From positions 1,216,001 to 1,280,000 of the forward strand of contig CAWDEM010000004.1 in the NCBI GenBank assembly GCA_963801355.1: a stretch of DNA of 64,000 nucleotides. The letters run 5' to 3'. The notes beneath the pieces are model-generated. The model saw only the letters and a program-made list of their open reading frames with translations. It did not search any database and had not been told where the DNA came from. This document shows, one piece after another, positions 4,864 to 57,186 of the stretch (positions within the stretch are counted from its first letter, which is position 1; every line of letters begins with the position of its first letter). The DNA is from Ignavibacteriota bacterium. GTDB taxonomy: Bacteria > Bacteroidota > Ignavibacteria > UBA10030 > UBA6906. The translations under genes and the position numbers were made by a program.

Positions 4864-4897
4864 CCCGGAGTCTTCCATATACTCAAGAGGAGATATC

Positions 4898-5698: not shown

Positions 5699-5705
5699 TA
5701 CCCTC

Positions 5706-7295: not shown

Positions 7296-7298
7296 TAC

Positions 7299-10810: not shown

Positions 10811-10866
10811 CGTTTGAGTTCACGACCCCCAACACCACATTCACAACTTCGTCTGTTGGAGCGCAC

Positions 10867-23958: not shown

Positions 23959-23964
23959 GAGGAA

Positions 23965-24969: not shown

Positions 24970-24978
24970 TCGAAGAGC

Positions 24979-39869: not shown

Positions 39870-39905
39870 CTGCACAGCAACAGCGCAGGCGCGCACGTTG
39901 GTCCG

Positions 39906-40841
39906 ATGATCACGACGGTCACCCTTAACCCGATGCTGGACAAGACCGTGCGACTGTCACACCTCGCGGTGGGGCAAATCACACGCGCCCGGGAAGTGTC
40001 GTGCATTGTCGGCGGCAAAGGAGTGAACGTTACCCGCCAGCTCCACCGGCTGGGCTGCTCCGCGCAGGCCACCGGCCTCTGGGGTGGAGAAGTCGGTCTC
40101 CAGTGCGACCGGTTGTTGGCCGCCGAAGGAATCGCACACCGGTTCGTGCGGATCGACGGCATGACACGGGAAGGGGTGACATATCTGGACGCGGAGGGCA
40201 CGATGACGTGCATCTTCGAACCGCCCCATCATGTCACGCCAGCGGAAGCGGATATGCTCGTGGCCCGGTGCTCTACGCTTCTGGCCGGCAGTCAGTGGCT
40301 GGCATGCTGTGGCAGCTCACCCGCTCCGGCAACCGATCATGTGTATGCCGACATTCTGCAGGAAGCGCGCGCACGAGGCGTCCGTACTGCACTGGATACG
40401 TACGGCGCACCGTTGAACCTTGCGCTTGCTGCCATGCCGGATGTGGTGAAGGTCAACCGCGAGGAATACCGGAGCAGCGCCGGTGCATCACTGGAACGTG
40501 AACGCGACGTGGTCGACGCACTGATTGCGCTTGTCGGACAAGGAATCGAATTGGCCGTTCTCACCGATGGACCCCGGCCGTGCTATGCAGCGAGCCGGTC
40601 GGGGTGCTGGAAAATCACCCCGCCGTCTGTCCCAACCGTGAATCCGACAGGATCCGGGGACAGCATGCTGGCCGGGATTCTGTATGGATTATCGCGGGGA
40701 TGGGACCATCCAAGCAGCGTCTGTTTTGGCGCTGCTGCCGGCGCGGCAAATGCCGCGGTCTGGAGTGTCTCGTCCGTGTCGATGCATGACATCATGTCGC
40801 TTCTCCCATCTGTGGCTGTCACTGAATTCATCGTCACCTAA
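39906..40841 (+). CDS. 1-phosphofructokinase/tagatose-6-phosphate kinase family hexose kinase
   Basis: TVTLNPMLD, GGKGVNV, KVNREE, NPTGSGDSMLAG. Confidence 0.92.
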   Translation: MITTVTLNPMLDKTVRLSHLAVGQITRAREVSCIVGGKGVNVTRQLHRLGCSAQATGLWGGEVGLQCDRLLAAEGIAHRFVRIDGMTREGVTYLDAEGTMTCIFEPPHHVTPAEADMLVARCSTLLAGSQWLACCGSSPAPATDHVYADILQEARARGVRTALDTYGAPLNLALAAMPDVVKVNREEYRSSAGASLERERDVVDALIALVGQGIELAVLTDGPRPCYAASRSGCWKITPPSVPTVNPTGSGDSMLAGILYGLSRGWDHPSSVCFGAAAGAANAAVWSVSSVSMHDIMSLLPSVAVTEFIVT

Positions 40842-40867
40842 CCCCCGTTTTCAGAAAGGTGCTGGAT

Positions 40868-43201
40868 ATGCCGATACTCAAACAATTCCTGACCACAATC
40901 ACTGTCATTGACATCCAGCCATCCGGCCCGCTTGTCGAATCCACCGTCGCGAACGAGATGCGGAGTACATCATGTCCGTCGGCCAACGTCCGCCGGTCGC
41001 CTGGCCTCTCTGTTGCTCCCCGGAGCGTGCGCGTCGCCGTTGCCGGTGACTCCGCGGCGTGGAAGACAATTCACCCGGCTCTGGCCACCCATGAACGGTG
41101 GCTGATGGTTCGTGTGAAGGGAGATGGGATGGAGCTCCTGGCCTCACACACCCATCTCCTGTATCAGGTCTGGACCTTCGTGCAGGACGAGTGGGCCTCT
41201 CTGAATGTTGCCGCATTTCACGATGGGAAAATCCTCATACCGACGTTCCCTGCAGTGCGACCGGTGTACGACATTCTCCTGACGCAAATCGCGCGCACAG
41301 CACGGGATTTTAACAAGGAAGAGCACTTCAAGACGCTGGCACGGATGGGTTCGACCTATGCGGAAGTGAACGGCCTTGCCTTTCCGGTGCCTATAGAAAC
41401 CGGCCCGCGGGGTGAAGTCCTCCACCGCTTCTACACGTACTGCCCGGCGCTTGACCAATTCGTCACAAGCCGCTTGAACAAGGGAATCTATGACAACGAC
41501 TACCTGCAGGCGAACCTCAACAACCTGAAACACAACGCGGCACTGGCCGAAAAATATGGTCTCATCCCCGGGCTGGTCTGCTTCGAACCACGCTCCGTAC
41601 CCGATGAACTGCTGAACCGTTATCCCGTTTTGCGCGGCGCGCGGGTGGATCATCCGATGCGCAGCTTCAGGCCGCGCTTCAATCTTTCTGTGGCACATCC
41701 CGTGGTCCTGGATCATTATTCCGAATTGATGGAAAATCTGATGCATGAGGTGCCGCGACTGGACTACCTTTCGGTCTGGTCGAATGACAGCGGTGCCGGC
41801 TTCGAGTACACGAGCTCACTCTATGTGGGCCGCAACGGCGGTGGTTACCTCGTGCGCGAATGGCTGGCCGCAAAGGATATCGCCTCCGCCGCGGCATTCA
41901 ACCTCGTCCGCTTCATCAAGACCCTGAGGGATGCGGGACGGCGTGTGAATCCGCGGTTCAGGACGCTCATCCGCCTCGAACCATTCTGGGAGGAGCACGA
42001 TTACATCTGGAGCATGCTCGAAGAAGGGCTGGACGTCGAAGTGTCGTCTCTTCTGACCAAGGGATGGGAACTCGCCTACAAACATCCACGCTACGAGGAA
42101 GTGCCGCAGATTCACGGCACGGCTCTCTATAGCACGTTCGTGAAGCAGGAACGGGCAGTCCTCGACGACCTCGAGAAGAAGGGATCGCACGCTGATGTCT
42201 ATTGCGTCCCCGGCGCTCTCCAGAATCACGATCCGATCATCGGTACAGCATTCCCGGCAATGATCTACAAAAAACTGCATGATATGGCGTCTGCGCGCGT
42301 GACAACGGCCGCCTACCTGGGCGGGGCCACGCAACAGTCCTTTGCTCCCTACAATATCAACCAGGAAATCGTGCGGGCATTCCAGTTTGATCGAAACCTT
42401 GATTTGCCCTCGTTCCTCCTGAAGAAAGCCGCGGAATGGATCGGACCTGAACTGGCCGCCGACCTGGTGCGTCTCTGGGAGATCTCCGAAGACGCGTACA
42501 CCTGTTTCCCCATCCCCATCTGGATCTTTTCCGGATGGAGCGTCTGGTACCGGCTGTTCATCCGGCCGATCGTTCCCGATATTGATGCCATTCCGGAGTC
42601 CGATCGTGCATACTATGAAGACTTCTTGCTGGCGACGTCGCACAACCGGGCCAGGGTCGACTTCCGCTACGATGTGGGCTTTGATCTCTGTGAACCCGAA
42701 CGGGCTTGGCTCGCAGTGAAGCACATGGATGAAGACCTGTTCCCGAGGATGGAGCGCGCGGTTGCGCTGGCCAAATCCCTCCTGGACCGCGCAACCAATG
42801 ACCAGGCGCGTTCCTGCGCCCGGGATCAATATGACCGGACACGGGGATTGCTCTACTGGTACCGCACGCAACGTGCCGTGACCGCCTGGGTGGCAGGCGT
42901 GCACACGTACCTGACGACACACGACGCGGCGAAAAGGAAAGAATGCCGTGAGCTGCTGCGGAAGATGGTGCTTGACGACATTCAGAACACGCGCGACCTG
43001 CTGGAGCTCTGGGAAACCTCCACCACGAACTGGATCCTGATCTCGGGAGTGGCGGAAACCACGTTCATCTACTACAGTAACTTCGGGGACTTGCTGAAAC
43101 GCAAGATCGCACTTGCCACAGGTCATGAGAACGACGAACCGTACGTCGATCCAGACTACCAGTGGCGTGTTCCGGGGTTCACAAAGGAGGTGCAGCGATA
43201 A
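40868..43201 (+). CDS. Uncharacterised large protein, possibly glycoside-hydrolase-like; paralog of 2660-4863
   Basis: Long intact ORF; LRGARVDHP, WSNDSGAGFE, GRNGG, RPIVPDIDAIP shared with the paralog. Confidence 0.75.
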   Translation: MPILKQFLTTITVIDIQPSGPLVESTVANEMRSTSCPSANVRRSPGLSVAPRSVRVAVAGDSAAWKTIHPALATHERWLMVRVKGDGMELLASHTHLLYQVWTFVQDEWASLNVAAFHDGKILIPTFPAVRPVYDILLTQIARTARDFNKEEHFKTLARMGSTYAEVNGLAFPVPIETGPRGEVLHRFYTYCPALDQFVTSRLNKGIYDNDYLQANLNNLKHNAALAEKYGLIPGLVCFEPRSVPDELLNRYPVLRGARVDHPMRSFRPRFNLSVAHPVVLDHYSELMENLMHEVPRLDYLSVWSNDSGAGFEYTSSLYVGRNGGGYLVREWLAAKDIASAAAFNLVRFIKTLRDAGRRVNPRFRTLIRLEPFWEEHDYIWSMLEEGLDVEVSSLLTKGWELAYKHPRYEEVPQIHGTALYSTFVKQERAVLDDLEKKGSHADVYCVPGALQNHDPIIGTAFPAMIYKKLHDMASARVTTAAYLGGATQQSFAPYNINQEIVRAFQFDRNLDLPSFLLKKAAEWIGPELAADLVRLWEISEDAYTCFPIPIWIFSGWSVWYRLFIRPIVPDIDAIPESDRAYYEDFLLATSHNRARVDFRYDVGFDLCEPERAWLAVKHMDEDLFPRMERAVALAKSLLDRATNDQARSCARDQYDRTRGLLYWYRTQRAVTAWVAGVHTYLTTHDAAKRKECRELLRKMVLDDIQNTRDLLELWETSTTNWILISGVAETTFIYYSNFGDLLKRKIALATGHENDEPYVDPDYQWRVPGFTKEVQR

Positions 43202-44385
43202 AGCGCGGGCGGGACATTGCGGTACTGGTTGCACCTGATTCCTTCAAAGGAACGCTCAGCGCGCAGCAGGCGGCTGAGGCTATGGGGGAGGGCGTTCACG
43301 ACGTCATCCCCGGGAGTCCGGTCACGCTGATGCCGCTGTCCGACGGCGGTGAAGGACTGCTGGATGTGCTGCTGCCTGTGCTGGGCGGGGAAATCCAGCG
43401 GGCGAGAGTGGCCGGGCCTCTCCTGGGCCAGACGGTCGAAGCCCGCTGGGGATTCGTGGAATCCTCACGGACCGCCGTTCTGGAGATGGCAGAGGCCGCC
43501 GGGCTCGGCCTGGTCCCCCCGCAACAACGTGATCCCCGCATTACCACCACTCTTGGTGTGGGTCAAATTGTTCACTGTGCCCTCGATCGCGGAGCGCGCA
43601 CCCTGATCATCGGGATCGGGGGGAGCGGGACGAATGACGGGGGTGCAGGGATGGCGCAGGCTCTTGGCGTGCGGCTCCGCGACAACGCGGGGGATGAACT
43701 GCCGCCCGGCGGTGCCGCACTTGAGCGCCTTGCGTCGATTGATGTTGCCGGAGTCGATCCGCGCATCGCGGGGACGACCGTTCTCGTCGCATGCGATGTC
43801 CGTAACCCTCTCACGGGACCCGAAGGTGCCTCGGCGATATTCGGACCGCAGAAAGGTGCTTCACCCGGCGACGTTGCTCTTCTCGATGCAGCACTCACGA
43901 AGTACCGGGAGTTGCTTCTTGAAACGATCCACATCGATGTCCAGCATGTGCCCGGCAGCGGTGCTGCCGGCGGTCTCGGTGCCGGACTCGTGGCATTCTG
44001 CGGCGCGACTCTGCGTTCCGGGATTGACCTCGTTCTCGATCAGACAGGTTTTGACGCGGCGCTGGCCGGTGTCGATCTTGTGCTGACAGGAGAGGGGAGG
44101 ATTGACGCACAGACGCGCTATGGCAAAGTACTTTCGGGTGTACTCTCCCGTGCCCGCCGCAGGGGAATCCCCGTTGCCGCAATCGTCGGAGACATCACCG
44201 GCACACAGGGTGATTTCGTGGGCCCGGAGGGCTTTCTGGGCCTTGCCGCCCTGGTGGGACCGGAAACCGGACTGCAGGAAGCAATGGCACAGGCGCGACA
44301 CCTGGTCCGCAGGAGAACCGCACAACTTATCGCACAACTCATTCCCCACTTGAACCAACAGAGATCTGATTCCCATGCTCCTTAG
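43198..44385 (+). CDS. glxK: Glycerate kinase (class I, GlxK/GarK family); apparent ATA start
   Basis: APDSFKG, SDGGEG, GIGGSGTNDGG, GAAGGLG, TGEG; SD AAGGAGG 7 nt before ATA 43198. Confidence 0.9.
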   Translation: MKRGRDIAVLVAPDSFKGTLSAQQAAEAMGEGVHDVIPGSPVTLMPLSDGGEGLLDVLLPVLGGEIQRARVAGPLLGQTVEARWGFVESSRTAVLEMAEAAGLGLVPPQQRDPRITTTLGVGQIVHCALDRGARTLIIGIGGSGTNDGGAGMAQALGVRLRDNAGDELPPGGAALERLASIDVAGVDPRIAGTTVLVACDVRNPLTGPEGASAIFGPQKGASPGDVALLDAALTKYRELLLETIHIDVQHVPGSGAAGGLGAGLVAFCGATLRSGIDLVLDQTGFDAALAGVDLVLTGEGRIDAQTRYGKVLSGVLSRARRRGIPVAAIVGDITGTQGDFVGPEGFLGLAALVGPETGLQEAMAQARHLVRRRTAQLIAQLIPHLNQQRSDSHAP

Positions 44386-46174
44386 CGAAATCAAACAAGT
44401 CAACATCCTGGATCTCCTGGTGATTGCCGGCTATCTGCTGCTGCTCACCGGAGTCGGCATCTATCTGACACGGTTCAACAAGACCGTGGATGATTTCTTC
44501 AAAGGAGGTGGAAAGATCCCCTGGTGGATTTCCGGGCTCTCCACCTTCGTGGCCGGTTTTTCGGCTTTCATGTTCGTCGGCGCAGCAGGATTTTCGTACA
44601 AGTATGGCGGCGGCGCGGTCATCATGTTCACCAGCGCATTCTGGGGTTACGGATTGGGGTACTTCGTGTATGCGACCCTCTGGCGCCGATCACGTCTCTC
44701 CTCGCCGATGGAGTTCCTGACCAGGCGTTTTTCCCAGGGGACGACGTACTACTATACTCTCCTGTCGATCGTACCCTCCATCATGGGGCTCGGCCTGGGC
44801 ATTTACATACTCTGCATTTTTGTCGCCTCGGCATTGGGGATTATGGGCTGGTCGGTGGACCTGGGGCTCTTCCGTCTGACGGGACTTGAAGCATCGATGA
44901 TCATCACCGGCGTCGTCATGCTCATCTACACGAGTGCCGGCGGACTATGGGCGGTGGTGATCACGGATTCTCTCCAGTTCTTCATCATCCTTATTGTCAG
45001 CCTGCTCATCTTCCCGCTGGCGTTCATGGCTCTCGGATCGGGGAACATGCTGTCGGGTGTGCAGCGTCTCTTTGCGGAGGCTCCGGCGGAGTACATGAGC
45101 CTGCGTGATCTGTTCACGCGGCCGGAATTCTACACTGCCTACTTCCTGAGCTCCCTTATCGGCTACAATGCCGCATGGCATATCGGCCAACGCTACTACA
45201 GCGTCCCGACGGAGCACGATTCAAGGAAGATGGCTATCCTGTGCGCCGTCCTGAGTCTCTTCCTGCCGTTCTTCTGGATAGCACCGACCATGGCCGCCCG
45301 CGTTATGTTTCCGGACATGGCGCACCTCTGGCCGCAACTCACCGAGCCGGCAGAGGCGTCCTATGTGACGCTCGCCCTGACACTTCTTCCCAACGGCCTG
45401 ATCGGGTTGACAATCTCCGCTATTCTGGCGGCCACCATGACATCCATCGATACCCAGCTCAACTACCTCGGCTCCATACTCGTACGGGATGTCTACGTCC
45501 GCCTGCGCACGGTCGTCCGTCATGCGGTGCCGCCTGCGGGCGAACAGCTGTTGATGAGCCGGGTGACGGCGTTTACGCTCGGCATCCTTGCGATCATCAC
45601 GGCGGTCATCGTCCAGCGCTCAAAAGGAGTGTTTGATTTTGCGCTCATGTACTACTCCTGGTTTGGCCCCTCGATGTTCACGCCGGTCATGCTCGGCCTG
45701 ATCTTCCGGAAAACACCATCATGGTCGGCAAGCGCCTCGGCAACAGCGGGGCTCCTGTTTGTCCTTATCGCAAATGTGGTGATTGACGTGACACCGCACC
45801 AGTACGAAGTGAACATTTTCGGCGGCGTCGGCATCTCGGCGCTGGTGTTCTTCCTGTCGAAATTCTGGAAGGAACGGGATGCGGAGAGAGCGCGCAACCG
45901 GGAGGCCTTCGACGCGGATCTGCGGACCCCCGTTACAGACGAGTCATTGCGATGGTCCGGCAATGCGCTCGAGTCGTACCGGCTTGTCGGCATAATGACA
46001 GGTGCTATCGGCCTCACCGTCCTCGGCCTCGCGATTGTCCCTGCCGCACCTCAGGTACACATCCTGAGCGCGGCTCTTGGACTCGGGACCACGCTTATCG
46101 GGGGGATGATGGTCTGGTATTTCCGCAAGCAGGTCAAAGTGACGGAGGCGGAGAACAAGGAGAAGCACCGATGA
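44375..46174 (+). CDS. Sodium:solute symporter (SSS) family transporter
   Basis: DFFKGGGKIPWW, FSAFMFVGAAG, GGLWAVVITD.LQ, GQRYY, AATMTSID. Confidence 0.92.
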   Translation: MLLSEIKQVNILDLLVIAGYLLLLTGVGIYLTRFNKTVDDFFKGGGKIPWWISGLSTFVAGFSAFMFVGAAGFSYKYGGGAVIMFTSAFWGYGLGYFVYATLWRRSRLSSPMEFLTRRFSQGTTYYYTLLSIVPSIMGLGLGIYILCIFVASALGIMGWSVDLGLFRLTGLEASMIITGVVMLIYTSAGGLWAVVITDSLQFFIILIVSLLIFPLAFMALGSGNMLSGVQRLFAEAPAEYMSLRDLFTRPEFYTAYFLSSLIGYNAAWHIGQRYYSVPTEHDSRKMAILCAVLSLFLPFFWIAPTMAARVMFPDMAHLWPQLTEPAEASYVTLALTLLPNGLIGLTISAILAATMTSIDTQLNYLGSILVRDVYVRLRTVVRHAVPPAGEQLLMSRVTAFTLGILAIITAVIVQRSKGVFDFALMYYSWFGPSMFTPVMLGLIFRKTPSWSASASATAGLLFVLIANVVIDVTPHQYEVNIFGGVGISALVFFLSKFWKERDAERARNREAFDADLRTPVTDESLRWSGNALESYRLVGIMTGAIGLTVLGLAIVPAAPQVHILSAALGLGTTLIGGMMVWYFRKQVKVTEAENKEKHR

Positions 46175-47091
46175 GCCGCATCATCAGGGTGAGTGCCGCA
46201 CAGCTCCCTGCCGTTGTGGAGGGAGGCTCCGCGGCCGCACGCCGTGCCCGGAATCGCAAAGACATTCTGTCGTTCCTGCGGATTGCCGGAGAGCGATCCT
46301 CCGACCTTGTCCTGTTCGGCGAGTATGCGAACCTCGATCACCGGTCCACCTCATCGCGGAAGAAGGACTACCTTCCCGACAGTATACCGGGACAGTTCAC
46401 AGGGCTGGTCGGACGGGCCGCGCGCAAGTACAGGATGAATGTGATCATGCCGATGTACGGCACCTGGCGGGGGGCAGTGTCAAGCCAGGCTGTGGTCTTT
46501 GACCGGAACGGCGACATTCTGGGATGCTACCAGAAATCCCATGACACGCAGCCGGAACAGGATCTGGGCATGCAGCGGGGCAACGAACTCCCCGTCTTCA
46601 CGCTCGATTGTGTGCGCATAGGCATCATGACCTGTATGGACATCGAGTACCCCGAAGTCGCACAGGTACTCATGGTGCGTGGAGCTGAACTCCTCCTCTT
46701 TCCTCACGTGCAGTCCGGCTGGGGGGAGGTGGACTGGGAGATACGGTACCGGGCCCGGGCCGTCGATACCGGGCTTCCGTTGCTGTCCGCCTGCTATGGT
46801 TATCCCGAAGGACAGTGGATGCCCGGCAAGATGATCGGACGCACCAGTCTCATTGGCCGGGACGGATTGGTCCTTGCCGATATCGGCCGGCGCATCGGCG
46901 TTCTGACGGTAGACCTGGACATCGCCCAGGGCCGGGTGACACAGTTCTATTTCAACAAGGCCTACCCGCGCACGACGGCGATTGTGGCATCCCGCCGCCC
47001 TGAATTGTATCATGATCTCACAGATGCCGGCGCGAGGGATCGAGCGCTCAAACATCTTCCTCTGTCGCAGAAAGGAACACCACGTGGCTGA
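46171..47091 (+). CDS. Carbon-nitrogen hydrolase (nitrilase superfamily)
   Basis: E-K-C triad: LFGEY, YQKSH, TCMDIEYPE; RRPELY. Confidence 0.9.
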   Translation: MSRIIRVSAAQLPAVVEGGSAAARRARNRKDILSFLRIAGERSSDLVLFGEYANLDHRSTSSRKKDYLPDSIPGQFTGLVGRAARKYRMNVIMPMYGTWRGAVSSQAVVFDRNGDILGCYQKSHDTQPEQDLGMQRGNELPVFTLDCVRIGIMTCMDIEYPEVAQVLMVRGAELLLFPHVQSGWGEVDWEIRYRARAVDTGLPLLSACYGYPEGQWMPGKMIGRTSLIGRDGLVLADIGRRIGVLTVDLDIAQGRVTQFYFNKAYPRTTAIVASRRPELYHDLTDAGARDRALKHLPLSQKGTPRG

Positions 47092-47878
47092 CACGACACC
47101 GGTAGCCATCGTCACAGGCGCAAGCCGTGGACTGGGGCGGGGTATCGCCGTGCAATTGGCGGAGCTGGGATTCTCCGTCGTTGTCAATTTCTCCGGAAAC
47201 GCCGCCGCAGCGAGTGAGACAGTCGAACTCTGCCGTTCCCGGCAGAGTCAGATTGACCAGAAGTTCGTCCCGTTCCAGGCCGATATGGCCGAACAGGCTG
47301 ACCGGGTGCGGCTGGTCGAACAAACGCTTGGCGCACTGGGACGAATCGATGCGCTGGTCAACAATGCAGGGGTCGGTCCGCTGGTGCGTGCAGATGTGAC
47401 CGAAACTTCCCCAGAATCCTTCGATCGCGTCATGCGGGTGAACCTGGAAGGCCCGTTCTTTCTCACACAGGCGGTCGTCAACTACTGGCTCTCGCAGCGC
47501 CCCGATCCGTTGCTTCCTCACGGTTTCTCCATCGTGAATATCTCCTCCATATCCGCGAATACCGCGTCACTCAACAGGGGTGAGTACTGTATCTCCAAGG
47601 CGGGCCTTGCCATGGTGACACAGCTCTGGGCCGTGCGGCTCGCCTCCTCGCGCATTCATGTCTTCGAACTGCGGCCGGGTATCATGGCGACGGACATGAC
47701 GAGTGTCGTGAAGGAGAAGTACGAGAGGATGATGGGCGAAGGGCTCGTGCCCCAGAACCGCTGGGGCCGCCCCGATGACGTCGGAAAAGCTGTCGGCGCA
47801 CTAGTGACCGGGGCCTTCCCATATTCCACCGGGAGTGTCATCTATCTGGACGGTGGGATGCATCTCAGAAGATTCTAA
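47084..47878 (+). CDS. Short-chain dehydrogenase/reductase
   Basis: TGASRGLG, NNAG, YCISK, RPG..TDM; GTG start with SD AAGGA. Confidence 0.92.
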   Translation: MADTTPVAIVTGASRGLGRGIAVQLAELGFSVVVNFSGNAAAASETVELCRSRQSQIDQKFVPFQADMAEQADRVRLVEQTLGALGRIDALVNNAGVGPLVRADVTETSPESFDRVMRVNLEGPFFLTQAVVNYWLSQRPDPLLPHGFSIVNISSISANTASLNRGEYCISKAGLAMVTQLWAVRLASSRIHVFELRPGIMATDMTSVVKEKYERMMGEGLVPQNRWGRPDDVGKAVGALVTGAFPYSTGSVIYLDGGMHLRRF

Positions 47879-47904: not shown

Positions 47905-49278
47905 ATGCTCACCATCGATACATCTCTCACCCCGGAGAAGCTCCTTCCCGGAATCGACAGGGTCTTCTCTGTGTCGGCAAAGAAGATCGACGCACTCCAG
48001 AAACGCTGGGATCCCGCGCGTGGTACGCCGGTATTCACCGTGCGGGGTGAATACACGTCGCGGGGGTGGACTGAGTGGACGCAGGGCTTCCAGTTCGGGT
48101 CTGCCATACTGCAGTTTGACGCGACAGGTGATGAACATTTCCTCGCCATCGGGCGCGATGCGACGGTCCGGTACATGGCCACTCATGTCAGTCATATTGG
48201 AGTGCACGACCACGGTTTCAACAATATCAGCACCTACGGCAATCTGCTGCGGCTCATGAACGAGGGCAGAATGCCCGAAAATCCGTGGGAGCGGGCATTC
48301 TATGCTCTGGCCCTGAAGGTGAGCGGCGCAGTTCAGGCTGCGCGGTGGACCGATCTGGGAAGCGGCAGGGGGTACATTTATTCCTTTAACGGGCCGCACT
48401 CTCTCTTTGCCGATACGGTGCGCTCGCTCCGTGTGCTCGCCGTGGCTCACCGGTTCGGCCATGTGCTGATGGGAGAAAAGGACCGGAAGATATCGCTTCT
48501 GGACCGGCTCATCCGCCACGCCGACGCGACGGCCGAGTTCAACGTGTATTTCGGCGTAGGACGCGATGCGTATGACGTCCGGGGCAGGGTCGCCCATGAG
48601 GCAATATTCAACCTGAACGACGGCTCCTACCGTTGTCCCAGCTCACAACAGGGATACTCTCCCTTCAGCACGTGGACACGGGGCCATGCGTGGATACTCT
48701 GCGGCTTCGCAGAACAGCTTGAATTTCTGGACACTCTTGCCGGAACTGACTTCGTGTTCGGGGAGTCGAAGGAAGAGATCATGAAGAGATACCTCAACAC
48801 CGCGATCGCCGTTGCAGAGTTCTATCTGTCGCAAACACCTGTTGATGGCATTCCCTACTGGGACACCGGGGCGCCCGGGCTGGCGCGGATGGGGGACTAC
48901 CTGAACCGCCCCGCCGACCCGTTCAATGATCACGAGCCGGTGGACAGTTCTGCTGCGGCGATTGCAGCGCAGGGACTCATTCGACTGGGGAATTTTCTCT
49001 CAAAAAATGCGGAAGACCTCAAGGGAACCCGCTACAGGAAGGCGGGGCTCACCGTGGCAAAGACCCTTTTCGGGGAGCCCTATCTGTCAACCGATGCCGC
49101 ACATGAAGGGTTGATTCTGCACTCGGTGTACCACCGTCCCAACGGGTGGGATTATGTGCCGGAGGGGCACAAGGTCCCCTGTGGAGAAGCAACAATGTGG
49201 GGAGACTACCACTCGCGCGAGCTCGCGCTTCTCGTACAACGCATGGCGAAAGGCCAGCCGTACTATACATTCTTCTAG
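47905..49278 (+). CDS. GH88-like unsaturated glucuronyl hydrolase family protein
   Basis: WTQGF, HDHGF, TWTRGHAW, PYWD, DSSAAAIAA, WGDY. Confidence 0.8.
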   Translation: MLTIDTSLTPEKLLPGIDRVFSVSAKKIDALQKRWDPARGTPVFTVRGEYTSRGWTEWTQGFQFGSAILQFDATGDEHFLAIGRDATVRYMATHVSHIGVHDHGFNNISTYGNLLRLMNEGRMPENPWERAFYALALKVSGAVQAARWTDLGSGRGYIYSFNGPHSLFADTVRSLRVLAVAHRFGHVLMGEKDRKISLLDRLIRHADATAEFNVYFGVGRDAYDVRGRVAHEAIFNLNDGSYRCPSSQQGYSPFSTWTRGHAWILCGFAEQLEFLDTLAGTDFVFGESKEEIMKRYLNTAIAVAEFYLSQTPVDGIPYWDTGAPGLARMGDYLNRPADPFNDHEPVDSSAAAIAAQGLIRLGNFLSKNAEDLKGTRYRKAGLTVAKTLFGEPYLSTDAAHEGLILHSVYHRPNGWDYVPEGHKVPCGEATMWGDYHSRELALLVQRMAKGQPYYTFF

Positions 49279-50268
49279 CTGGTCTCCGCAGCAAAGAATG
49301 TCCAGAGGTTCTGCATCGGCGCCTGAGCAGGAACATCACACCCCGACGAGATCACGAAATTCTTGTACAGTGCCGTTGCCTCGAGCAACTTCTCTGTTTT
49401 CATGCGTGACTTCCGCGACTGTTCCGTTGACGAAAACCTCCGACGGATCGAGGTTTCCGCAGAGTACCACGTCGTTCGGAACCTGCTCCAGCGCTGCAAC
49501 GATGTCCATCGGCTTTCCGAAGTGAAAAATGCGCGCACCGGTCTCAAGGCTCGGTGCAAGGTGGGTGATCCTGGCCCCGCAATTGTGCAGGATCACCTGG
49601 AAGTCGTTGTCGTTTACCGCTGTAACGATCTGACGGACGTACGGTGTGCAGAACTGCCGGAATGACGCCGGTGACATCAATCCCGCCGTAGGTTCCGCCA
49701 TGAGCACGCCGTGAGCACCCGCCTCTTTGAACGCGCGGGCATAGGCGATGAGAAATGCGGTGGTCTTTTCCAGGAGCGTGTGCATGAGTTCCGGCTCGCC
49801 CATGGTTTCCGCCAGCGCCTCACTCACGCCATAGAGTCGACCTGCCAGCGAAAAGGGGCCGATCATCCCGCCGAGAACCAGCGCGCCGGCGACCCGTGCA
49901 CGCAGCCGTCGTACCGTCGCGAGATAGACTCCGGTGCGTTTCGTCCCGATCTTCGGGATCGCCAATGACGCGATGCCGTTGCCCTCCGTGAGGTAACGGC
50001 CCACGACGGAGGGAATTTCCCAGTCGTCCATCGTGATTGTCGCCCCGAAGGCTTCTGCCTCAACGCTCAAATCCATTGCCGACAGAACGAAGGGCGTCTG
50101 GAACTGTGCCTGCAGTGCCTCCGATGCCGCACATTGCTTCACCGGGTCGGTCACCATTTCGCGAACATTGGTATGCGTGAGTCGCGCACCGGGGAACGTT
50201 ATGATCGGCATGAAAAGACGGCTGGGAGAAGAGAGAATCGTTGCGACCAGTTGCGGTGTTGCGGTCAT
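49275..50268 (-). CDS. URO-D/MtaA-CmuA family corrinoid methyltransferase; +1 frameshift at ~49404
   Basis: DLSVEAEAFG, GPFSLA, AEPTA, LHNCG, GNLDP; shifted frame continues KTEKLL..FVISSGCDVP to TAG at 49275. Confidence 0.85.
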
Positions 50269-50279
50269 ACAGAGTCCTT

Positions 50280-51806
50280 TCACGCTGATGTGCTCTCAAT
50301 GTTCGCGGGGAACAGCATCTCTTCGACATACGCATCCTGAAATCCCTGCAGTCCGCTCAACGAGACGTGAGCGATGCGGTGGGCGAGGGCGTCAAATACG
50401 GCCGGATCGACAAACAGGGCCATCTTGGCGCCAAGGAGTGCGGTGTTGCCCGCCGGATGAATCTGGTCCAGAGCAAATGGCAGCAACCCGATGCGCCGGG
50501 CACTCGCGGTGTCGACATAGTTGCCGAAAGCGCCTGCAAGATCCACCCTCTCGATTTCCGGGCCCCGGAGTGTGAGCTCGTGCAGTAACAGCCGGATCCC
50601 TGCCGCAATGGCACCCTTAGCCAGCTGAAGTTCGCGGATGTCCGTCTGGGAAATTTTGACCGGGTCACACAGCATGAGTGATGGTTCTCCGCCCGCCAGA
50701 CGGCCACCTGGCAGGACCCGCTGCAGATCAAGTGCGCAGGCGACCGCATCCACCAATCCACTCCCGCATATCCCGCGGGGGGCGACGTTCCCGAGCACGT
50801 GACAGAGGAGCTGTCCGTTGTTCGTCCGCACGGCCGACACAGCGCCTGTCGATGCACGCATACCCATGTAAATGCGGGCACCTTCGAATGCCGGACCAGC
50901 GGCAGTCGAGGCACAGAGCATCTGCCTGCCGTTGCCGATCACTATTTCGCCGTTGGTGCCGAGATCAATCAGCACATGCGGCCGATCGGCGTTCTGCAGC
51001 CCTGTGGCAAAAACTCCCGCCAGAATATCGCTGCCGACGAATCCCCCGATGTCCGGAAGAAACCGGATCTGAGGTGTTCCCTGCAAAGCCCACCCGAGCT
51101 GCGGGGCATCACATATCGTCCCTCCGAGGTGCTCCGGTTCAAACGGATAGTGCGAGAGGGGTTCTACGGAACGATCGGAAAACAGATGATGCATTACGGT
51201 GTTGCCGACAAGGACGATATCCCGGACAGGATCGGCCGCCCGCCCGGCCCCCTGAAGCAACTCCACGATCATCTTCCCGATCTGCCGGCGCACGGCCTCC
51301 ACGAGTCTGGCCTGCCCGCCCTCATGGACGGCGTATCCCACGCGGGACATGATGTCAGCACCGAATCGGGCCTGAGGGTTGAGGGCTGTCCTGACGGCCA
51401 GGACCTCAGCGCGTTCCAGATCCAGGAGTTGAGCGACGAGAGTGGTCGTCCCCACGTCAATTGCGATGCCCAGACCGGATTTCGGGACGAAGGAGAAGCT
51501 GGTCGTATCGGCGAGGATCTGGGCTTCCCATTGCGCCAGTTCCAGGACCAGGTCACTGTCAGCGTTGCACTGGCAGGAGAGACGCCAGCCGGCCGCGAGT
51601 TCCTCCGGTGTGAGCATCCGCTCCTGCTCGTCATTGACCGGGAGATCTCCTTCGATAACACGAACACGGCATCCTTTACATTTTCCCTTCCCTCCGCAGG
51701 GAAATTCCACGCCGAAGGGAAATAGCACGTCTTGAAGGGGCGTGCCGCGAGGGGCGTCGAAAGCCGCGCCCATCGGGCGGAGACGAATGTGGACCGTTTC
51801 GTTCAT
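50280..51806 (-). CDS. ASKHA-domain ATP-dependent corrinoid reductive activator (RACo/RamA-like, DUF4445) with N-terminal 2Fe-2S
   Basis: CGGKGKCKGC..RLSCQ, IDVGTTT, GADIMSR, DLGTNGEIV, AGPAFEG, GICGSG, AGAFG. Confidence 0.92.
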   Translation of the reverse strand: MNETVHIRLRPMGAAFDAPRGTPLQDVLFPFGVEFPCGGKGKCKGCRVRVIEGDLPVNDEQERMLTPEELAAGWRLSCQCNADSDLVLELAQWEAQILADTTSFSFVPKSGLGIAIDVGTTTLVAQLLDLERAEVLAVRTALNPQARFGADIMSRVGYAVHEGGQARLVEAVRRQIGKMIVELLQGAGRAADPVRDIVLVGNTVMHHLFSDRSVEPLSHYPFEPEHLGGTICDAPQLGWALQGTPQIRFLPDIGGFVGSDILAGVFATGLQNADRPHVLIDLGTNGEIVIGNGRQMLCASTAAGPAFEGARIYMGMRASTGAVSAVRTNNGQLLCHVLGNVAPRGICGSGLVDAVACALDLQRVLPGGRLAGGEPSLMLCDPVKISQTDIRELQLAKGAIAAGIRLLLHELTLRGPEIERVDLAGAFGNYVDTASARRIGLLPFALDQIHPAGNTALLGAKMALFVDPAVFDALAHRIAHVSLSGLQGFQDAYVEEMLFPANIESTSA

Positions 51807-52552
51807 TCCGAGGCGGGTTGGGCGTCGATGATGCGTTCGTCGTATGTGGCGACGACGCGATGTCCGGGCGGCACGACGAGAAACTCCTCAGTATTCCATA
51901 CGGCATGCACAAGGTGCTCGAGGAGTGCGAGGTCGCCCTTCACGGCGTCGAACTTCCATCCATGTTCGCGAGCGCGGGCTTCCGCTTCTTTGTGAAAGCG
52001 GTCATCGGGTTCGACGCCCATGGCAATGTAGGAGATCTGCCGGTAGTTCCTCGTCGTGTCGCACAGCTGTTCGAAAAGGTACTGTGCGTTTTCTGCACCG
52101 TACTTCTCCGTGAGCTGTGCGAGCGTCATGTCCATTCCGTTCTTGGCTGCAATGGAGAGTTGTCTGAGTTCGCCGGAGGCTTCGCCGCGTTCAATCCATC
52201 CCGACGTGAGGAAGTAGGTGCCGGGGTTGTCGGTGAAGTACTGCTGGTAGCGGGCGCGGCTGCCCAGGAAGAGGGTCATGCAATCATGACCGCGGGGAAT
52301 AACCAGAGGGAGTGTCCGTGCGCGGAGTCCGCTGACACCGTTGTTGCAGAGGGCGTAGCCCATGAGCACGGCATCATACCCGGGTGTGTCGGCGGCGTCC
52401 ACTGCGGCTTGCAGACGGGCGAGCATCCCATCGGCGCCGATATCGTGGAGTCCTTTTGGCAGGACAGCCAGATCCACCTGATGCGGTGAGCGGGCAATCA
52501 GCGCGCAGAGCTCACGATAGAGAACCTCGCACGCAACAAGTTTCAGTTTCAC
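51803..52552 (-). CDS. DUF1638 domain protein
   Basis: LVACEV, GLH, GYALCNNG, HDCMTLFLGS, GTYFLTSGW. Confidence 0.85.
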   Translation of the reverse strand: MKLKLVACEVLYRELCALIARSPHQVDLAVLPKGLHDIGADGMLARLQAAVDAADTPGYDAVLMGYALCNNGVSGLRARTLPLVIPRGHDCMTLFLGSRARYQQYFTDNPGTYFLTSGWIERGEASGELRQLSIAAKNGMDMTLAQLTEKYGAENAQYLFEQLCDTTRNYRQISYIAMGVEPDDRFHKEAEARAREHGWKFDAVKGDLALLEHLVHAVWNTEEFLVVPPGHRVVATYDERIIDAQPASE

Positions 52553-52579
52553 GGGATTCGGGCTACGGGCGCCGGGGGA

Positions 52580-53446
52580 TCAGGGCCGCAGCGCTTTCTG
52601 CAGTGCATGAATGAATTCGGGGGAGGTCCCGCAGCACCCGCCGACAAATGCCACGCCGGCCTTACGCAAGGATTCCGCCTGGCGCGCAAACTCGGCAGGA
52701 GTGGTACGGTACACGATGTGCCCGTCAACAAGTTCCGGGAGACCCGCGTTGGGCTTGATCCAGATAGGCAGCGGTGTCGCCATGCGGAGGCGTTGCGCAA
52801 TGGGTATGTAGCCCTCCATGCCCAGCCCGCAATTCGCACCGATCACGTCCGCTCCCGCCTCGGTAAGCGCCTCGGCCACCTCCTCCGGTGTCGATCCCAT
52901 CATCGTGCGGTCTTTCTGTTTACCCGAGTCGAAGACCATCGATGCGACGACCGGCAGACCGACGGTCTTTGCCGCGCGGACAGCAATGCATGCCTCCTCG
53001 AGGTCGGACATTGTTTCGATGACAAGGGCATCCGCCGCACCGAGTGCCGATGTCTGCTCTGCAAATGCGTTGAAGACCTCTTCCTCGCTCACCTCTCCCA
53101 TCATCAGCATCTTCCCTGTCGGCCCGATGGACGCGAACACCCTGGCGCGTGCACCTGCAGCTCCGCGCGAGATTTCCACACCCGCGCGATTGATCTCGAG
53201 AACGCGGTCCCCAAGCCCGTGAGCCGTCAGGGTAATCCTGTTGCTTCTGAAGGTATTGGTGAGGATCACCTTGCTCCCTGCATCCACGTAGCTCTGGGCC
53301 ACCCGGCGCACAAGGTCCGGGTGAGTGAGATTCCAACCATCGGGACACTCGCCGGCGGGCAGACCCAATGCCTGTAGCTGTGTACCCCATGCGCCGTCGG
53401 TAATGACCGGATCCGGTCCGAGCAGTTGTGCGAGCAGGGAGGACAT
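52580..53446 (-). CDS. Homocysteine S-methyltransferase family protein (stand-alone MetH N-terminal-like domain)
   Basis: DGAWGT, ILTNTF, SIGPTG, IETM, GANCG, PNAGLP, GGCCGT; SD AGGAG before ATG 53446. Confidence 0.92.
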   Translation of the reverse strand: MSSLLAQLLGPDPVITDGAWGTQLQALGLPAGECPDGWNLTHPDLVRRVAQSYVDAGSKVILTNTFRSNRITLTAHGLGDRVLEINRAGVEISRGAAGARARVFASIGPTGKMLMMGEVSEEEVFNAFAEQTSALGAADALVIETMSDLEEACIAVRAAKTVGLPVVASMVFDSGKQKDRTMMGSTPEEVAEALTEAGADVIGANCGLGMEGYIPIAQRLRMATPLPIWIKPNAGLPELVDGHIVYRTTPAEFARQAESLRKAGVAFVGGCCGTSPEFIHALQKALRP

Positions 53447-53456
53447 TGCGGGACTC

Positions 53457-54092
53457 CTACGCGGCGGAGAGCCTGCGCGCGAGCGCGACTGCCGCGTTGG
53501 CATTGTTGCTGTAGCCGTCTGCGCCGATTTCGTCGGCATATTTCTGCGTCACCGGTGCCCCACCGATCATGATCTTGACCTTGTTCCGCACTCCGGCGGC
53601 GTTGATGGCATCCACCGTCGTCTTCATGGAATTCATCGTGGTGGTGAGGAGGGCGGACATCGCCACGAGGCCTGCGCGTCGTTCGTTCAGCGCTGCTATG
53701 AATTTTTCCGGGGCAACGTCCACACCCAGATCAATGACTTCAAAACCCGCGCCCTCGAGCATGGCTGCCACCAGATTCTTGCCGATGTCGTGCAAATCAC
53801 CCTTGACCGTCCCGATGACCACGCGGCCCGCCGGTTCGGCGCCTCTGGCCGCCAGGAGGGGACGGATCAGCTCGAGGCAAGCCTTCATCGCCCGGGCCGA
53901 TATCAGCAATTCCGGCACGAAGTACTCATTGGCCTCATAGCGGCGTCCGACTTCGTCCATGGCAGGGATCATTTGCTCCTGCACGAGCGCCTGCGGATCG
54001 ATGCCCGCGGCCAGCGCCTGTTGTGTGATCTCACGTGCGGACTTGAAATTCCCGGTGAGAATGGCATCGTACATCTTCTTCAGATCTTCCAT
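53457..54092 (-). CDS. Corrinoid (B12-binding) methyl-carrier protein, MtbC/MttC-like
   Basis: Cap domain (FVPELL.SARAM) plus GTVKGDLHDIGKNLV, DLGVDV, SALLTTT, GGAPV. Confidence 0.95.
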   Translation of the reverse strand: MEDLKKMYDAILTGNFKSAREITQQALAAGIDPQALVQEQMIPAMDEVGRRYEANEYFVPELLISARAMKACLELIRPLLAARGAEPAGRVVIGTVKGDLHDIGKNLVAAMLEGAGFEVIDLGVDVAPEKFIAALNERRAGLVAMSALLTTTMNSMKTTVDAINAAGVRNKVKIMIGGAPVTQKYADEIGADGYSNNANAAVALARRLSAA

Positions 54093-54132
54093 CGAAAGAG
54101 ATCTCCTTCCCGTTGAGTTTCCTCGGAGTGGA

Positions 54133-55182
54133 TCACACTCCGTGTTCGTAAATCGTTTTGTATAGTGTCGTAATATTCTCTGTCGGCGTCACCGGCTGGA
54201 TATTGTGACAGGGGGCGCAGATCCAGCGGCTGCCACTGAAGATGCGGATGTTGTCCAGGACCTCGTTGCGCACGTCCGTCACCGACCCGAACGGGAGAGT
54301 GAACTGATTGTCGACTGCGCCGTGGAAAATCACGCGTCGCCCGAAATCCCTGACCAGGCCTTCCCGTTCCATTCCCGGGCAGCGCCACTGAATGGGATTC
54401 AAAACCTCAATGCCCGTGACGTCGAGCAGATCGGGAATGATCTCACGCGCTGCCCCGTCTGTATGATAGAAGACGTGGATGCCGAAGCTGCGTGCCAGAT
54501 CCGCCATCTTCTTCTGACGCGGAAGGATGTACTTGCGGATTTCAGGTACGCCGAACAACAGAGACGTCTGTCCGCCGAGATCCTCCGCAACGTAGGTGAT
54601 ATCAATCCGGCCTTTGCCGAGTTCGAACAACCGGCTGTTCAGCTCGAGATGGTATTGAAAAATGTGTTCAAGGGCGGCATCGACGATTTCGGGTTCGACC
54701 TTAAGATCCATCATAGCCAATTCCATGCCGCGCAGTGCGCAGTAGAGCAGGAACGGCTCATAGTTGCCGGCGCAGAGTATGCGGTGAGGCGGCGACCCGG
54801 CGACCTCGCGTGCGAAGCGGTCGAAGTCAACGTCTCCGGCACACGGCCAACCATACGCGTGGATTTCCTCAACCGAGCTGACATTCTCCAGCGGATGATT
54901 GGCAAACTCGTCATAGCTCCCGGCTCCGTAGCTGACAGCCTTGCGCCGTATCCCCCAGATGTCCGCACGAGCATCTATGGGGAAGTGGTCCACGGTGTGC
55001 ACGGGTTTGAGCTCCACGACGCCGTCGATGTGCAACGTAGTGTAGAGCTCCTCCTTGTTCGCGCACCGCAACTCGCGCAGGAGTCGCTCGGTCACTTCGT
55101 CGGTCGCCCAATAATCAGTGGGAATACGATCCGGTTTCTCGCCGTTGAAAAGGGCCAACCAGCGTTCACGTGGAGTCAGCAT
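54133..55182 (-). CDS. URO-D superfamily protein, candidate substrate:corrinoid methyltransferase
   Basis: TPRER..KPDRIP, EDLGGQ, YHTDG, LNPIQ, FHGAVDNQ, APCHNIQ..TP.EN. Confidence 0.85.
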   Translation of the reverse strand: MLTPRERWLALFNGEKPDRIPTDYWATDEVTERLLRELRCANKEELYTTLHIDGVVELKPVHTVDHFPIDARADIWGIRRKAVSYGAGSYDEFANHPLENVSSVEEIHAYGWPCAGDVDFDRFAREVAGSPPHRILCAGNYEPFLLYCALRGMELAMMDLKVEPEIVDAALEHIFQYHLELNSRLFELGKGRIDITYVAEDLGGQTSLLFGVPEIRKYILPRQKKMADLARSFGIHVFYHTDGAAREIIPDLLDVTGIEVLNPIQWRCPGMEREGLVRDFGRRVIFHGAVDNQFTLPFGSVTDVRNEVLDNIRIFSGSRWICAPCHNIQPVTPTENITTLYKTIYEHGV

Positions 55183-55280: not shown

Positions 55281-55309
55281 TTGACTGAAACGGGAAATAC
55301 CCCTATTCT
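55281..55309 (+). promoter_or_regulatory. Candidate sigma70 promoter
   Basis: TTGACT (55281)-N17-TATTCT (55304). Confidence 0.6.
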
Positions 55310-55335
55310 TGTCTGACAAACTCCGGCGCGCGCGC

Positions 55336-56226: not shown

Positions 56227-56280
56227 AACCTCCGCCCGTGCATTCCGTACCACTAGCTGGACAGGAAAAGGAGAGAAGCG

Positions 56281-57060: not shown

Positions 57061-57075
57061 CGTGCTTTTTCCCCA

Positions 57076-57140
57076 CTTCATCGTCCATAAACGCGCTTCG
57101 TCGCTGCGGGCATTGCTCCTCAGGAAAAAAGAAGTATTAT
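57076..57140 (+). promoter_or_regulatory. Candidate LytTR-activated promoter of the sensor kinase
   Basis: CTTCATCG 57076 and CTTCGTCG 57096, then 31 nt, then TATTAT 57135. Confidence 0.6.
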
Positions 57141-57186
57141 GCCCTCAGCGTGGGTAAGTCTCGCGTCATTGACCGGGGTTGTGTCT

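Follow-up and report, generated by a model that had tools for sequence, protein, structure and literature searches.

A six-gene corrinoid methyltransferase operon of an uncultured Ignavibacteria-type bacterium as a putative hub for the demethylation of O-methyl substrates

Introduction

The locus described here raises the question of where a bacterium that encodes a complete methionine synthase obtains, and where it delivers, the methyl groups handled by a second and separate set of corrinoid proteins. The locus lies in a window of 64,000 nucleotides (the whole stretch of DNA that was analysed; positions 1,216,001 to 1,280,000 of contig CAWDEM010000004.1, assembly GCA_963801355.1) from an Ignavibacteriota bacterium, and consists of six tightly packed genes on the minus strand at 49275-55182, identified from the list of open reading frames (ORFs), Pfam and NCBIfam. 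Its host, not yet cultured, is a bacterium of soil or wetland with a genome of 4.8 Mb in 8 contigs, rated 100% complete. Soil and freshwater-sediment metagenomes contain public contigs that match the window at more than 99% identity across stretches of a few hundred bases.

The original prediction for this DNA described the operon as a folate-free, disassembled MetH in which two URO-D enzymes load methyl groups from an organic substrate onto a corrinoid protein and thereby onto homocysteine (Hcy). The route from organic substrate through corrinoid to homocysteine stands as the best reading, with a chance that we put at about even; the operon would be the central hub of a corrinoid-dependent demethylase system that moves methyl groups from an O-methyl substrate to homocysteine. 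Judged by its sequence, the operon works most like the MtgBCDE or split MetH systems and the three-component O-demethylases, and is a member of neither.

Results and Discussion

Composition and conservation of the operon

The six genes are listed below in the order of transcription.

54133..55182, minus strand: UROD1, URO-D-fold protein, 349 aa (Pfam URO-D, E 1.5e-15)
53457..54092, minus strand: corrinoid (B12) carrier protein CP, 211 aa (B12-binding_2 and B12-binding)
52580..53446 (ORF open to 53539), minus strand: HcyMT, stand-alone homocysteine S-methyltransferase module (PF02574, E 7.6e-68)
51803..52552, minus strand: DUF1638 protein, 249 aa (PF07796, E 3.2e-37)
50280..51806, minus strand: RACo/RamA-type ATP-dependent corrinoid reductive activase with an N-terminal 2Fe-2S domain (Fer2, Raco_middle, RACo_C_ter)
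49275..50283, minus strand: UROD2, MtaA-like methyltransferase, frameshifted here (URO-D, E 6.8e-47 for the frame 49336-50283)

DUF1638 overlaps RACo, and RACo overlaps UROD2, by 4 bases, and the other gaps between genes of the operon measure 10 to 40 bases. Pfam bore out the earlier domain inventory of the six genes. Pfam and NCBIfam likewise agreed that the operon holds no pterin-binding or AdoMet domain, with zero matches to Pterin_bind (PF00809) and Met_synt_B12 (PF02965) in the six proteins. No cobalamin riboswitch was detected, as no Rfam family reached threshold in the whole window, and scans for promoters (2 versus 2.0) and terminators (7 versus 4.7) stayed at the level of shuffled sequence.

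Conservation of the arrangement was assessed with a UROD1 scan of one genome per species, which gave 378 relatives. The best 80 of these 378 were taken as loci; 48 of them were evaluable, having 5.6 kb or more of sequence after the UROD1 orthologue. Gene order was counted by tblastn up to 7 kb downstream, with the following partner genes found after UROD1.

CP, HcyMT, DUF1638, RACo, UROD2: 14 of 48 loci
CP, HcyMT, DUF1638, RACo: 2 of 48 loci
CP, RACo, UROD2: 1 of 48 loci
CP, DUF1638, RACo: 1 of 48 loci
CP only: 1 of 48 loci
RACo only: 6 of 48 loci
None of the partner genes: 23 of 48 loci (including L056, whose RACo lies 7.7 kb downstream, beyond the limit)

The arrangement of the operon is not due to chance, and its gene order recurs in related loci. 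The full operons all belong to metagenome-assembled genomes (MAGs) labelled Bacteroidota or Ignavibacteriota.

A sample of 251 genomes spread evenly over the phylum Bacteroidota provided a second view. Homocysteine modules at least 60% identical to HcyMT were found in four genomes (G000, the host genome, and G053, G037 and G153), exactly those with a UROD1 of at least 64% identity; G153 encodes the two on separate contigs. Since three of the four genomes belong to one family, no more than two or three independent cases underlie this co-occurrence. More distant stand-alone homocysteine modules (42-48% identity) were present in another thirteen genomes, which have no UROD1.

For genomes with a solitary UROD1 orthologue, the prediction was set that, if the family needs a carrier, one should be encoded elsewhere in the genome. 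Five Planctomycetota-type genomes were picked on this basis (the hosts of loci L048, L072, L073, L091 and L094). RACo, a corrinoid protein of stand-alone size and a stand-alone homocysteine module (44-63% identical) were each present in 5/5, and DUF1638 in 4/5. RACo and DUF1638 are scarce elsewhere, with 7 and 4 of the 251 Bacteroidota genomes. These partner genes are support for a carrier need and not proof of it.

Two unlike URO-D-fold enzymes

In UROD1, the match to the URO-D profile is confined to the C-terminal half of that profile. The best solved match of the UROD1 family profile was MtaA (4ay7, E 2.6e-12); the motifs H-x-D and C-H of UROD1 align with H-x-C and the last ligand Cys of MtaA, respectively. 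Conservation of H240, D242, C322, C325 and H326 reaches at least 97% among 73 sequences, comprising the window and 72 loci (8 of the 80 were omitted for an incomplete match or an unclear start). A Foldseek search with the AlphaFold2 model of UROD1 (pLDDT 95.7) also gave 4ay7 as the best hit (E 1.2e-13, TM 0.69-0.71), followed by uroporphyrinogen decarboxylases and MetE. The predicted metal site of UROD1 is formed by His240/Asp242 and Cys325/His326, and both sequence and model mark the protein as a candidate substrate:corrinoid methyltransferase (MT I).

The best solved relatives of UROD2 were a uroporphyrinogen decarboxylase (6w2o, E 1.1e-15) and, in second place, MtaA (4ay7, E 1e-14). Its NCBIfam matches of MtaA/CmuA type scored 132-133 bits, below cut-off; the 235.4 bits required by TIGR01463 (MtaA/CmuA) were reached by neither UROD2 (132.5) nor UROD1 (31.1). 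An H-N-C motif was present in 15/15 sequences, and the C-terminal S-S-G-C-D motif, which holds the third metal-ligand Cys, in 14/14 homologues and in the other frame of the window. A likeness of UROD2 to a folate methylase was considered and dropped, given that 4AY7 is Methanosarcina MtaA and that the folate-forming methyltransferase II (MT II) of Desulfitobacterium is represented by 4O1E/4O1F.

According to the consulted part of Kountz and Balskus (PMC10418091), a His-Cys-Cys site marks S-methyltransferases of the URO-D superfamily, and its replacement by a carboxylate marks O-methyltransferases. Applied here, the rule predicts a methyl group bound to oxygen as the substrate of UROD1 and a thiol as that of UROD2. 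The original prediction had treated the two as loaders of the same kind, which does not agree with a His/Asp/Cys-type site in one and a His/Cys/Cys site in the other; they therefore probably act on opposite sides of the carrier. In locus L040, which has CP, RACo and UROD2 after UROD1 and no homocysteine module, UROD2 is the only possible unloading enzyme. Additionally, loci L029, L040 and L093 carry two more UROD1-like genes (27-29% identical) right after UROD2 on the opposite strand.

From its start at 50283, the UROD2 frame runs to a stop at 49336, and another frame, which ends at 49275, encodes the conserved C-terminus. This arrangement places a 1-base frameshift near 49400-49408. The operon end at 49275 given earlier was thus correct for the C-terminus, but it is reached only across this frameshift and not by the called frame. 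One explanation is that the operon is decaying in this strain and that the frameshift marks a loss of function, since 14/14 homologues in related loci are intact (326-352 aa). We consider this very improbable. The other five genes of the operon are intact and conserved, and among the contigs from four public runs that were aligned to the window, the two that cover the site (runs X1 and X2; X3 and X5 lie outside it) both have one letter fewer at 49408. We therefore take an assembly indel to be likelier than a dead UROD2 gene, also because MetH and a MetE-like gene of the same assembly are split in two frames.

MetH at G000 C4:1103191-1106738 consists of two overlapping frames of 615 and 583 aa, by natural split or assembly indel. 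The MetE-like gene is a short one on the plus strand of the window at 1602-2613 (Meth_synt_2, E 6.6e-36, about 333 aa), with the last 46 profile positions in a second frame (2476-2613), so that it looks frameshifted too. It is similar in size to the 'core-MetE' forms described in the consulted part of Mausz et al. (PMC12478193).

Carrier, homocysteine module and activase

The carrier CP matched B12-binding_2 (PF02607, E 3.7e-23) and B12-binding (PF02310, E 1.4e-32), and its motifs D-x-H-x-x-G, S-x-L and G-G are invariant in 23/23 sequences. The nearest NCBIfam models were MtgC and pyl_corrinoid, with all scores below cut-off; the MtgC/MtbC-type carrier models scored 218 and 203 bits versus 130 bits for MetH.

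The earlier call of a homocysteine S-methyltransferase held, and its type could be narrowed. The best solved relative of HcyMT is the homocysteine domain of Thermotoga maritima MetH (1q7m, E 4e-50), with BHMT at about 1e-19 and the S-methylmethionine-type enzyme 5dml at 4e-11. By sequence, HcyMT is of the MetH type and not of the betaine or S-methylmethionine type. In MetH itself, a domain of this type takes the methyl group from methylcobalamin. The zinc motifs G-x-N-C and G-G-C-C-G (Cys triad) are present in 17/17 relatives, and the gene probably starts at 53446 and not at 53539, because most of these 17 relatives are about 290 aa long and start at the equivalent Met.

HcyMT also matched the 'betaine-homocysteine' model PRK07534 at 232 bits. 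The name of this model is that of Sinorhizobium meliloti Bhmt, which we assume the model to cover. In the consulted part of Mausz et al. (2025, PMC12478193), S. meliloti Bhmt is re-read as an MtgE homologue. HcyMT is 31-38% identical to the three other genomic PF02574 copies, with 34% for MetH. Together with a carrier nearer to MtgC/MtbC than to MetH, this makes 'disassembled MetH' wrong as an account of its origin.

The activase RACo showed Fer2 (E 1.3e-09), Raco_middle (E 2.3e-44) and ASKHA-type RACo_C_ter (E 6.4e-62) domains in Pfam. Cys37, 43, 46 and 78, the ligands of the 2Fe-2S cluster, are invariant in 24/24 sequences, and the gene is single copy in the genome. ATP-dependent reactivation by this RACo-type activase would replace the AdoMet-dependent repair of MetH, as had been foreseen.

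DUF1638 as an accessory of the carrier part

The DUF1638 protein is the only copy in the genome and is translationally coupled to RACo. C8, H36, C69, H89 and C91 are invariant in 43 sequences; these five Cys/His residues suggest a metal or cluster site. A sequence search gave no solved relative. A search with its model (pLDDT 85) gave 0 fold matches at E <= 0.001, with TM about 0.2, and the Atlas search returned DUF1638 clusters only.

DUF1638 lies downstream of UROD1 in 17 loci, where CP and RACo accompany it in 17/17 and the homocysteine module in 16/17; locus L041 has the homocysteine module without DUF1638 and locus L060 has DUF1638 without the homocysteine module. In the 251-genome sample, RACo was found in 7 genomes and DUF1638 in 4, and the distribution of DUF1638 did not mirror that of RACo.

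DUF1638 had been called uncharacterised, which holds for its biochemical role but not for its physiology. As described in the consulted part of Price et al. (10.1101/192971), Phaeobacter inhibens DUF1638 mutants are methionine auxotrophs, and methionine synthesis needs this protein along with a RamA-like protein and three split-MetH pieces. The same part of the source offers no specific role for DUF1638, and the consulted part of Mausz et al. (PMC12478193) places it among proteins predicted to recharge cobalamin. Altogether, DUF1638 would be an accessory of the carrier, activase and homocysteine part.

DUF1638 was also seen inside longer open frames of 585 and 978 aa (G041:C2:554681-555055 and G255:C157:28945-29499). 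In one Atlas cluster, 56% of the members combine it with the ASKHA-type domain Hydant_A_N. These cases hint at fusions with an ATPase.

The operon in its host genome

The genome encodes a MetH locus with homocysteine, pterin, B12 and AdoMet domains all present; it holds the single genomic copy of PF02965 (C4:1106064). Two further PF02574 genes exist besides those of MetH and the operon. Because MetH is complete, the operon is not the methionine synthase of the cell, and a requirement for it in methionine prototrophy is unlikely.

The label 'folate-free' is plausible but not established. The three genomic PF00809 matches all lie outside the operon, and the genome encodes, besides MetH, a stand-alone Pterin_bind methyltransferase next to a second corrinoid protein. 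In addition, absence of PF00809 leaves room for a folate-binding enzyme of URO-D/MetE fold. The second, folate-linked corrinoid system lies at C8:1397645-1406587 (locus L096) in the order GH88-like gene, URO-D gene (H-N-D), Pterin_bind methyltransferase, MTHFR C-terminal part, MTHFR and corrinoid protein.

Of the 21 URO-D-family matches in the genome, two are the haem enzyme and UROD2; the majority of the others cover only the C-terminal half of the profile, like UROD1. At the ligand position, 19 aligned matches have H-x-D in 6 cases and H-x-C in 10. Set against these 21 URO-D matches and one MttB-family gene (C8:1250939-1252339) are 1 RACo, 1 DUF1638 and 2 stand-alone corrinoid proteins. Since the only activase of the genome lies in the operon, we read the operon as a hub for many loaders. 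A comparable economy is described for Eubacterium and Ruegeria, in which many MttB paralogues use one carrier (consulted part of PMC12478193). Acetyl-CoA synthase was not found in the genome, so the organism is not an acetogen. No ComA-type gene for coenzyme M synthesis was found in the genome either, nor an MtaB-type loader among the loaders looked for.

Proposed mechanism

In the mechanism that we propose, RACo would reduce the inactive Co(II) carrier to Co(I) with ATP and a low-potential electron. The His/Asp/Cys(His) site of UROD1 would polarise the ether oxygen of its O-methyl substrate, and the methyl group would pass to Co(I). Most likely the substrate is a methylated sugar that glycan breakdown sets free, perhaps a methyl-deoxyhexose. 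HcyMT may then unload the methyl-Co(III) carrier onto homocysteine to give methionine. UROD2, with its His/Cys/Cys site, would unload it as well, probably onto a second thiol that serves as the bulk methyl sink. Other URO-D paralogues and the MttB-family protein probably feed the same carrier, and the system would run alongside the normal MetH and not in its place.

In its widest form, the proposal would have Bacteroidota (Ignavibacteria-type) and Planctomycetota glycan degraders strip O-methyl groups from sugars without oxygen through B12, with a large family of URO-D loaders, dispersed over the polysaccharide-utilisation loci, feeding one hub of carrier, activase and DUF1638, and with the methyl group leaving as methionine and as a methylated thiol that is possibly volatile. 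We regard this extended version as speculative and, taken as a whole, doubtful.

Substrate and alternative explanations

Methylated sugars occur widely in the glycans of plants, mosses, algae and bacteria; methyl-rhamnose, methyl-fucose, methyl-xylose, methyl-galactose and 4-O-methyl-glucuronate are examples. A search of the full texts in one literature collection found no link of their anaerobic demethylation to corrinoid methyltransferases. As a chemical model for taking the methyl group off a sugar ether, the nearest is the zinc-assisted activation of methanol, an aliphatic C-O methyl donor, in the MtaABC system. A sugar-derived substrate is plausible on the strength of gene context, and it is the weakest link of the demethylase reading. 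In nine Ignavibacteria-type loci, the UROD1 orthologue (61-65% identical) is followed by a GH78 alpha-L-rhamnosidase and an amino-acid-type permease, with RACo also downstream in seven of the nine. L-rhamnose isomerase lies upstream of the UROD1 orthologue in 8 loci, 7 of them among these nine, and is preceded by an FGGY kinase in 6. In the genome studied here, the URO-D paralogue at C8:119397 has a GH78-like gene at a distance of four genes, GH88-like genes adjoin both corrinoid systems, and the third URO-D gene of the window is part of a plus-strand catabolic row next to the operon.

The adjoining genes are as follows.

47905..49278, plus strand: GH88-like (unsaturated uronyl hydrolase-like) gene, convergent with the operon (weak PF07470, E 6.9e-5)
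34414..47878, plus strand: row of closely spaced catabolic genes, with the GH88-like gene at its end (Pfam, NCBIfam)

For the GH88-like gene, Atlas gave clusters named GH88 or unsaturated glucuronyl hydrolase with a score of 0.99. A GH88-like gene is kept after 12 of the 14 full operons and directly beside UROD2 in 9. The row begins with an ArgE/DapE-type deacylase, a ROK kinase, the third URO-D paralogue (36470-37579) and a 773-aa protein of unknown kind, and continues with a hexose kinase, a 780-aa unknown, a glycerate kinase, a Na+/solute symporter, a CN-hydrolase and an SDR protein; SDR, symporter and glycerate kinase genes also stand beside the operon in several related loci. O-methyl sugars, the guess made in the original prediction, thus gain support from the rhamnose loci and GH88-like genes and are a plausible substrate.

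A number of observations weigh against the demethylase reading or its sugar substrate. The substrate is read from neighbouring genes only, and the nine rhamnose-type loci come from related MAGs and may represent one or two independent events. A tally of 81 neighbours of 14 scattered URO-D paralogues was diffuse, with 166 Pfam families and carbohydrate families occurring once or twice each (the tally lists families without locus and omits 2 of the 21 URO-D places, which have no called gene). The metal-ligand rule comes from a single preprint (PMC10418091, consulted in part) and was applied through alignment and not through structure. UROD1 orthologues are 57-67% identical across phyla, which fits a single ubiquitous small substrate, such as methanol or another common donor, and not necessarily a sugar. 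Additionally, the 23 evaluable UROD1 orthologues without a partner have uninformative neighbours (DnaA, aminotransferase, M48 peptidase), and the five Planctomycetota genomes were compared without a matched set lacking UROD1. In the phylum sample, 5 of the 7 RACo genomes have no DUF1638 and 2 of the 4 DUF1638 genomes have no RACo. The UROD2 arm, frameshifted in this assembly, may be dead in the strain. Homocysteine may moreover be a minor outlet, because its stoichiometric methylation would exceed the methionine need for growth.

The same mechanism could act on a non-sugar substrate, either a methoxylated aromatic from lignin or peat or methanol derived from pectin, which we hold to be possible but rather unlikely. 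The characterised O-demethylating MT I proteins of the URO-D superfamily (MtvB, OdmB, VdmB and MtoB) all use methoxylated aromatics (consulted part of PMC13222342), a fact that also counts against a sugar; the soil and freshwater-sediment origin of the near-identical contigs and the conservation of UROD1 across phyla agree with this alternative. However, CdmB, the sole solved member of the aromatic O-demethylase clade, was matched by the UROD1 family profile at only E 0.003 over 70 residues versus 2.6e-12 for MtaA, no aromatic-ring catabolic genes were seen in the neighbourhood, and the rhamnose and GH88-like context points to glycans.

A different source of methyl groups is assumed if the operon is a second split methionine synthase fed by methyl-tetrahydrofolate, through the Pterin_bind protein encoded elsewhere, in the manner of MtgD in Ruegeria, or through a URO-D-fold folate methyltransferase. 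Phaeobacter and Ruegeria share the set of homocysteine module, carrier, RamA-like protein and DUF1638 (consulted parts of 10.1101/192971 and PMC12478193), and the genome has its stand-alone Pterin_bind protein and MTHFR genes beside another corrinoid protein. MetE, which binds methyl-folate, shares the fold and was among the fold matches of UROD1 at E about 1e-5, and the consulted part of Kountz and Balskus (PMC10418091) allows an MtaA-like protein as folate methylase. Nevertheless, this explanation is unlikely: the complete MetH with its AdoMet domain leaves a second synthase without obvious use, the Pterin_bind gene has its own carrier and URO-D gene on another contig, UROD1 orthologues stand within rhamnose-utilisation clusters, and no report of a URO-D-family folate methyltransferase was found in the literature as far as it was consulted.

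It is also conceivable, and in our view quite improbable, that the operon handles methylated sulfur or selenium in the manner of mlp clusters or of methionine salvage, with UROD2 stripping a methylthio or methylseleno compound and the homocysteine module recycling the methyl group to methionine. UROD2 is indeed MtaA-like with His/Cys/Cys, and mlp clusters, in the consulted part of their description (PMC10418091), lack a folate methylase and combine MtaA-like proteins with a carrier and a RACE activase, with methyl transfer to methionine proposed. By that same part, type 1 mlp needs two or three His/Cys/Cys Mlps, and no homocysteine module or DUF1638 is mentioned there for these clusters. Here, the first and most conserved gene, UROD1, has Asp in place of Cys, and the operon neighbours carbohydrate genes and not sulfur or selenium genes.

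Relation to known systems

The closest published counterparts are the split MetH and MtgBCDE systems of Phaeobacter inhibens and Ruegeria pomeroyi (10.1101/192971, PMC12478193, each consulted in part), which were compared by published text and not by sequence. They share a separate homocysteine module, a carrier, a RamA/RACo activase and DUF1638. In MtgBCDE a single carrier is proposed to serve betaine demethylation and methionine synthesis (consulted part of PMC12478193), and one carrier is likewise proposed here for substrate demethylation and methionine formation. The operon differs in holding all of its parts together without the pterin-binding MtgD, Pterin_bind being found on contig C8 beside a different carrier. 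Its loaders are of URO-D fold and not of the MttB family to which MtgB belongs, and an MtaA-like thiol-type enzyme is added. Additionally, the host is an uncultured Bacteroidota/Ignavibacteria-type organism with a complete MetH, so that the system is probably not essential for methionine.

With the three-component O-demethylases of acetogens, Desulfitobacterium and archaea, the operon shares the clustering of a candidate MT I of URO-D fold, as judged from sequence and model, with a carrier and a RACo-type activase. Its unloaders are the homocysteine module and the MtaA-like protein, with no methyl-tetrahydrofolate-forming MT II; UROD1 is remote from the aromatic clade (judged on one solved member), the context is one of carbohydrates, and acetyl-CoA synthase is lacking. 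The second system of the genome, L096, is a fair example of the three-component type.

Type 1 mlp clusters share an MtaA-like protein, a carrier, a Ram/RACE activase and the lack of a folate methylase, according to the consulted part of PMC10418091. They require Mlp2 and Mlp3, whereas the operon has one His/Cys/Cys MtaA-like protein and a UROD1 with His/Asp, a distinction drawn from the description in that part of the source. The operon also has an explicit homocysteine methyltransferase and DUF1638, and mlp clusters are described there as mostly from Firmicutes.

MetH itself has the same type of homocysteine module and a B12 domain with the His-on motif, and the unloading chemistry should match. 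The operon is without the folate domain, the AdoMet repair domain and the single polypeptide of MetH, and has a carrier closer to the MtgC/MtbC type. MtaABC of Methanosarcina contributes, with MtaA (4ay7), the closest methyltransferase structure for both UROD1 and UROD2; the acceptor here would be homocysteine or another thiol.

Split MetH with DUF1638 is already known; the operon combines a homocysteine module, an MtaA-like enzyme, a candidate URO-D loader and DUF1638. If the demethylase reading is true, methyl groups of organic substrates would enter methionine directly and bypass folate, a gap in anaerobic glycan degradation would be filled, and the known range of B12 use by heterotrophs of soil and wetland would be wider. 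Outside marine Alphaproteobacteria, there would also be a second, testable setting for DUF1638 and the stand-alone homocysteine module. A volatile methylated sulfur outlet, if it exists, would link the turnover of plant and algal methyl-sugars to methanethiol or dimethylsulfide in wetlands. Should the operon instead be a folate-fed split MetH, it would be an ordinary extension of published work.

Other features of the window

The third URO-D-fold gene of the window (36470-37579, plus strand) encodes 369 aa with an H-S-C motif and a weak MtaA/CmuA match. A polysaccharide-deacetylase-like gene, divergent from the operon, opens a plus-strand series at 55309-61019, which continues with a sensor kinase of 1036 aa (Reg_prop/Y_Y_Y domains) flanked by two LytTR genes, a regulator before it and a response regulator after it; deacetylase-like and LytTR genes also lie upstream of the operon in several related loci.

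Eight large ORFs of 550-785 aa on the plus strand (3211-9545, 18747-26820, 37548-39869 and 40859-43201) have no Pfam family, and two of them have no NCBIfam match either. With BNR/sortilin-like, GH38 and kinase genes around them, they may represent glycan-active enzymes that have escaped recognition. Finally, a gene of LarA type (lactate racemase family) is found at 12783-14066 on the plus strand, after a class-V aminotransferase (9266-10810) and a sodium:solute symporter (10807-12774).

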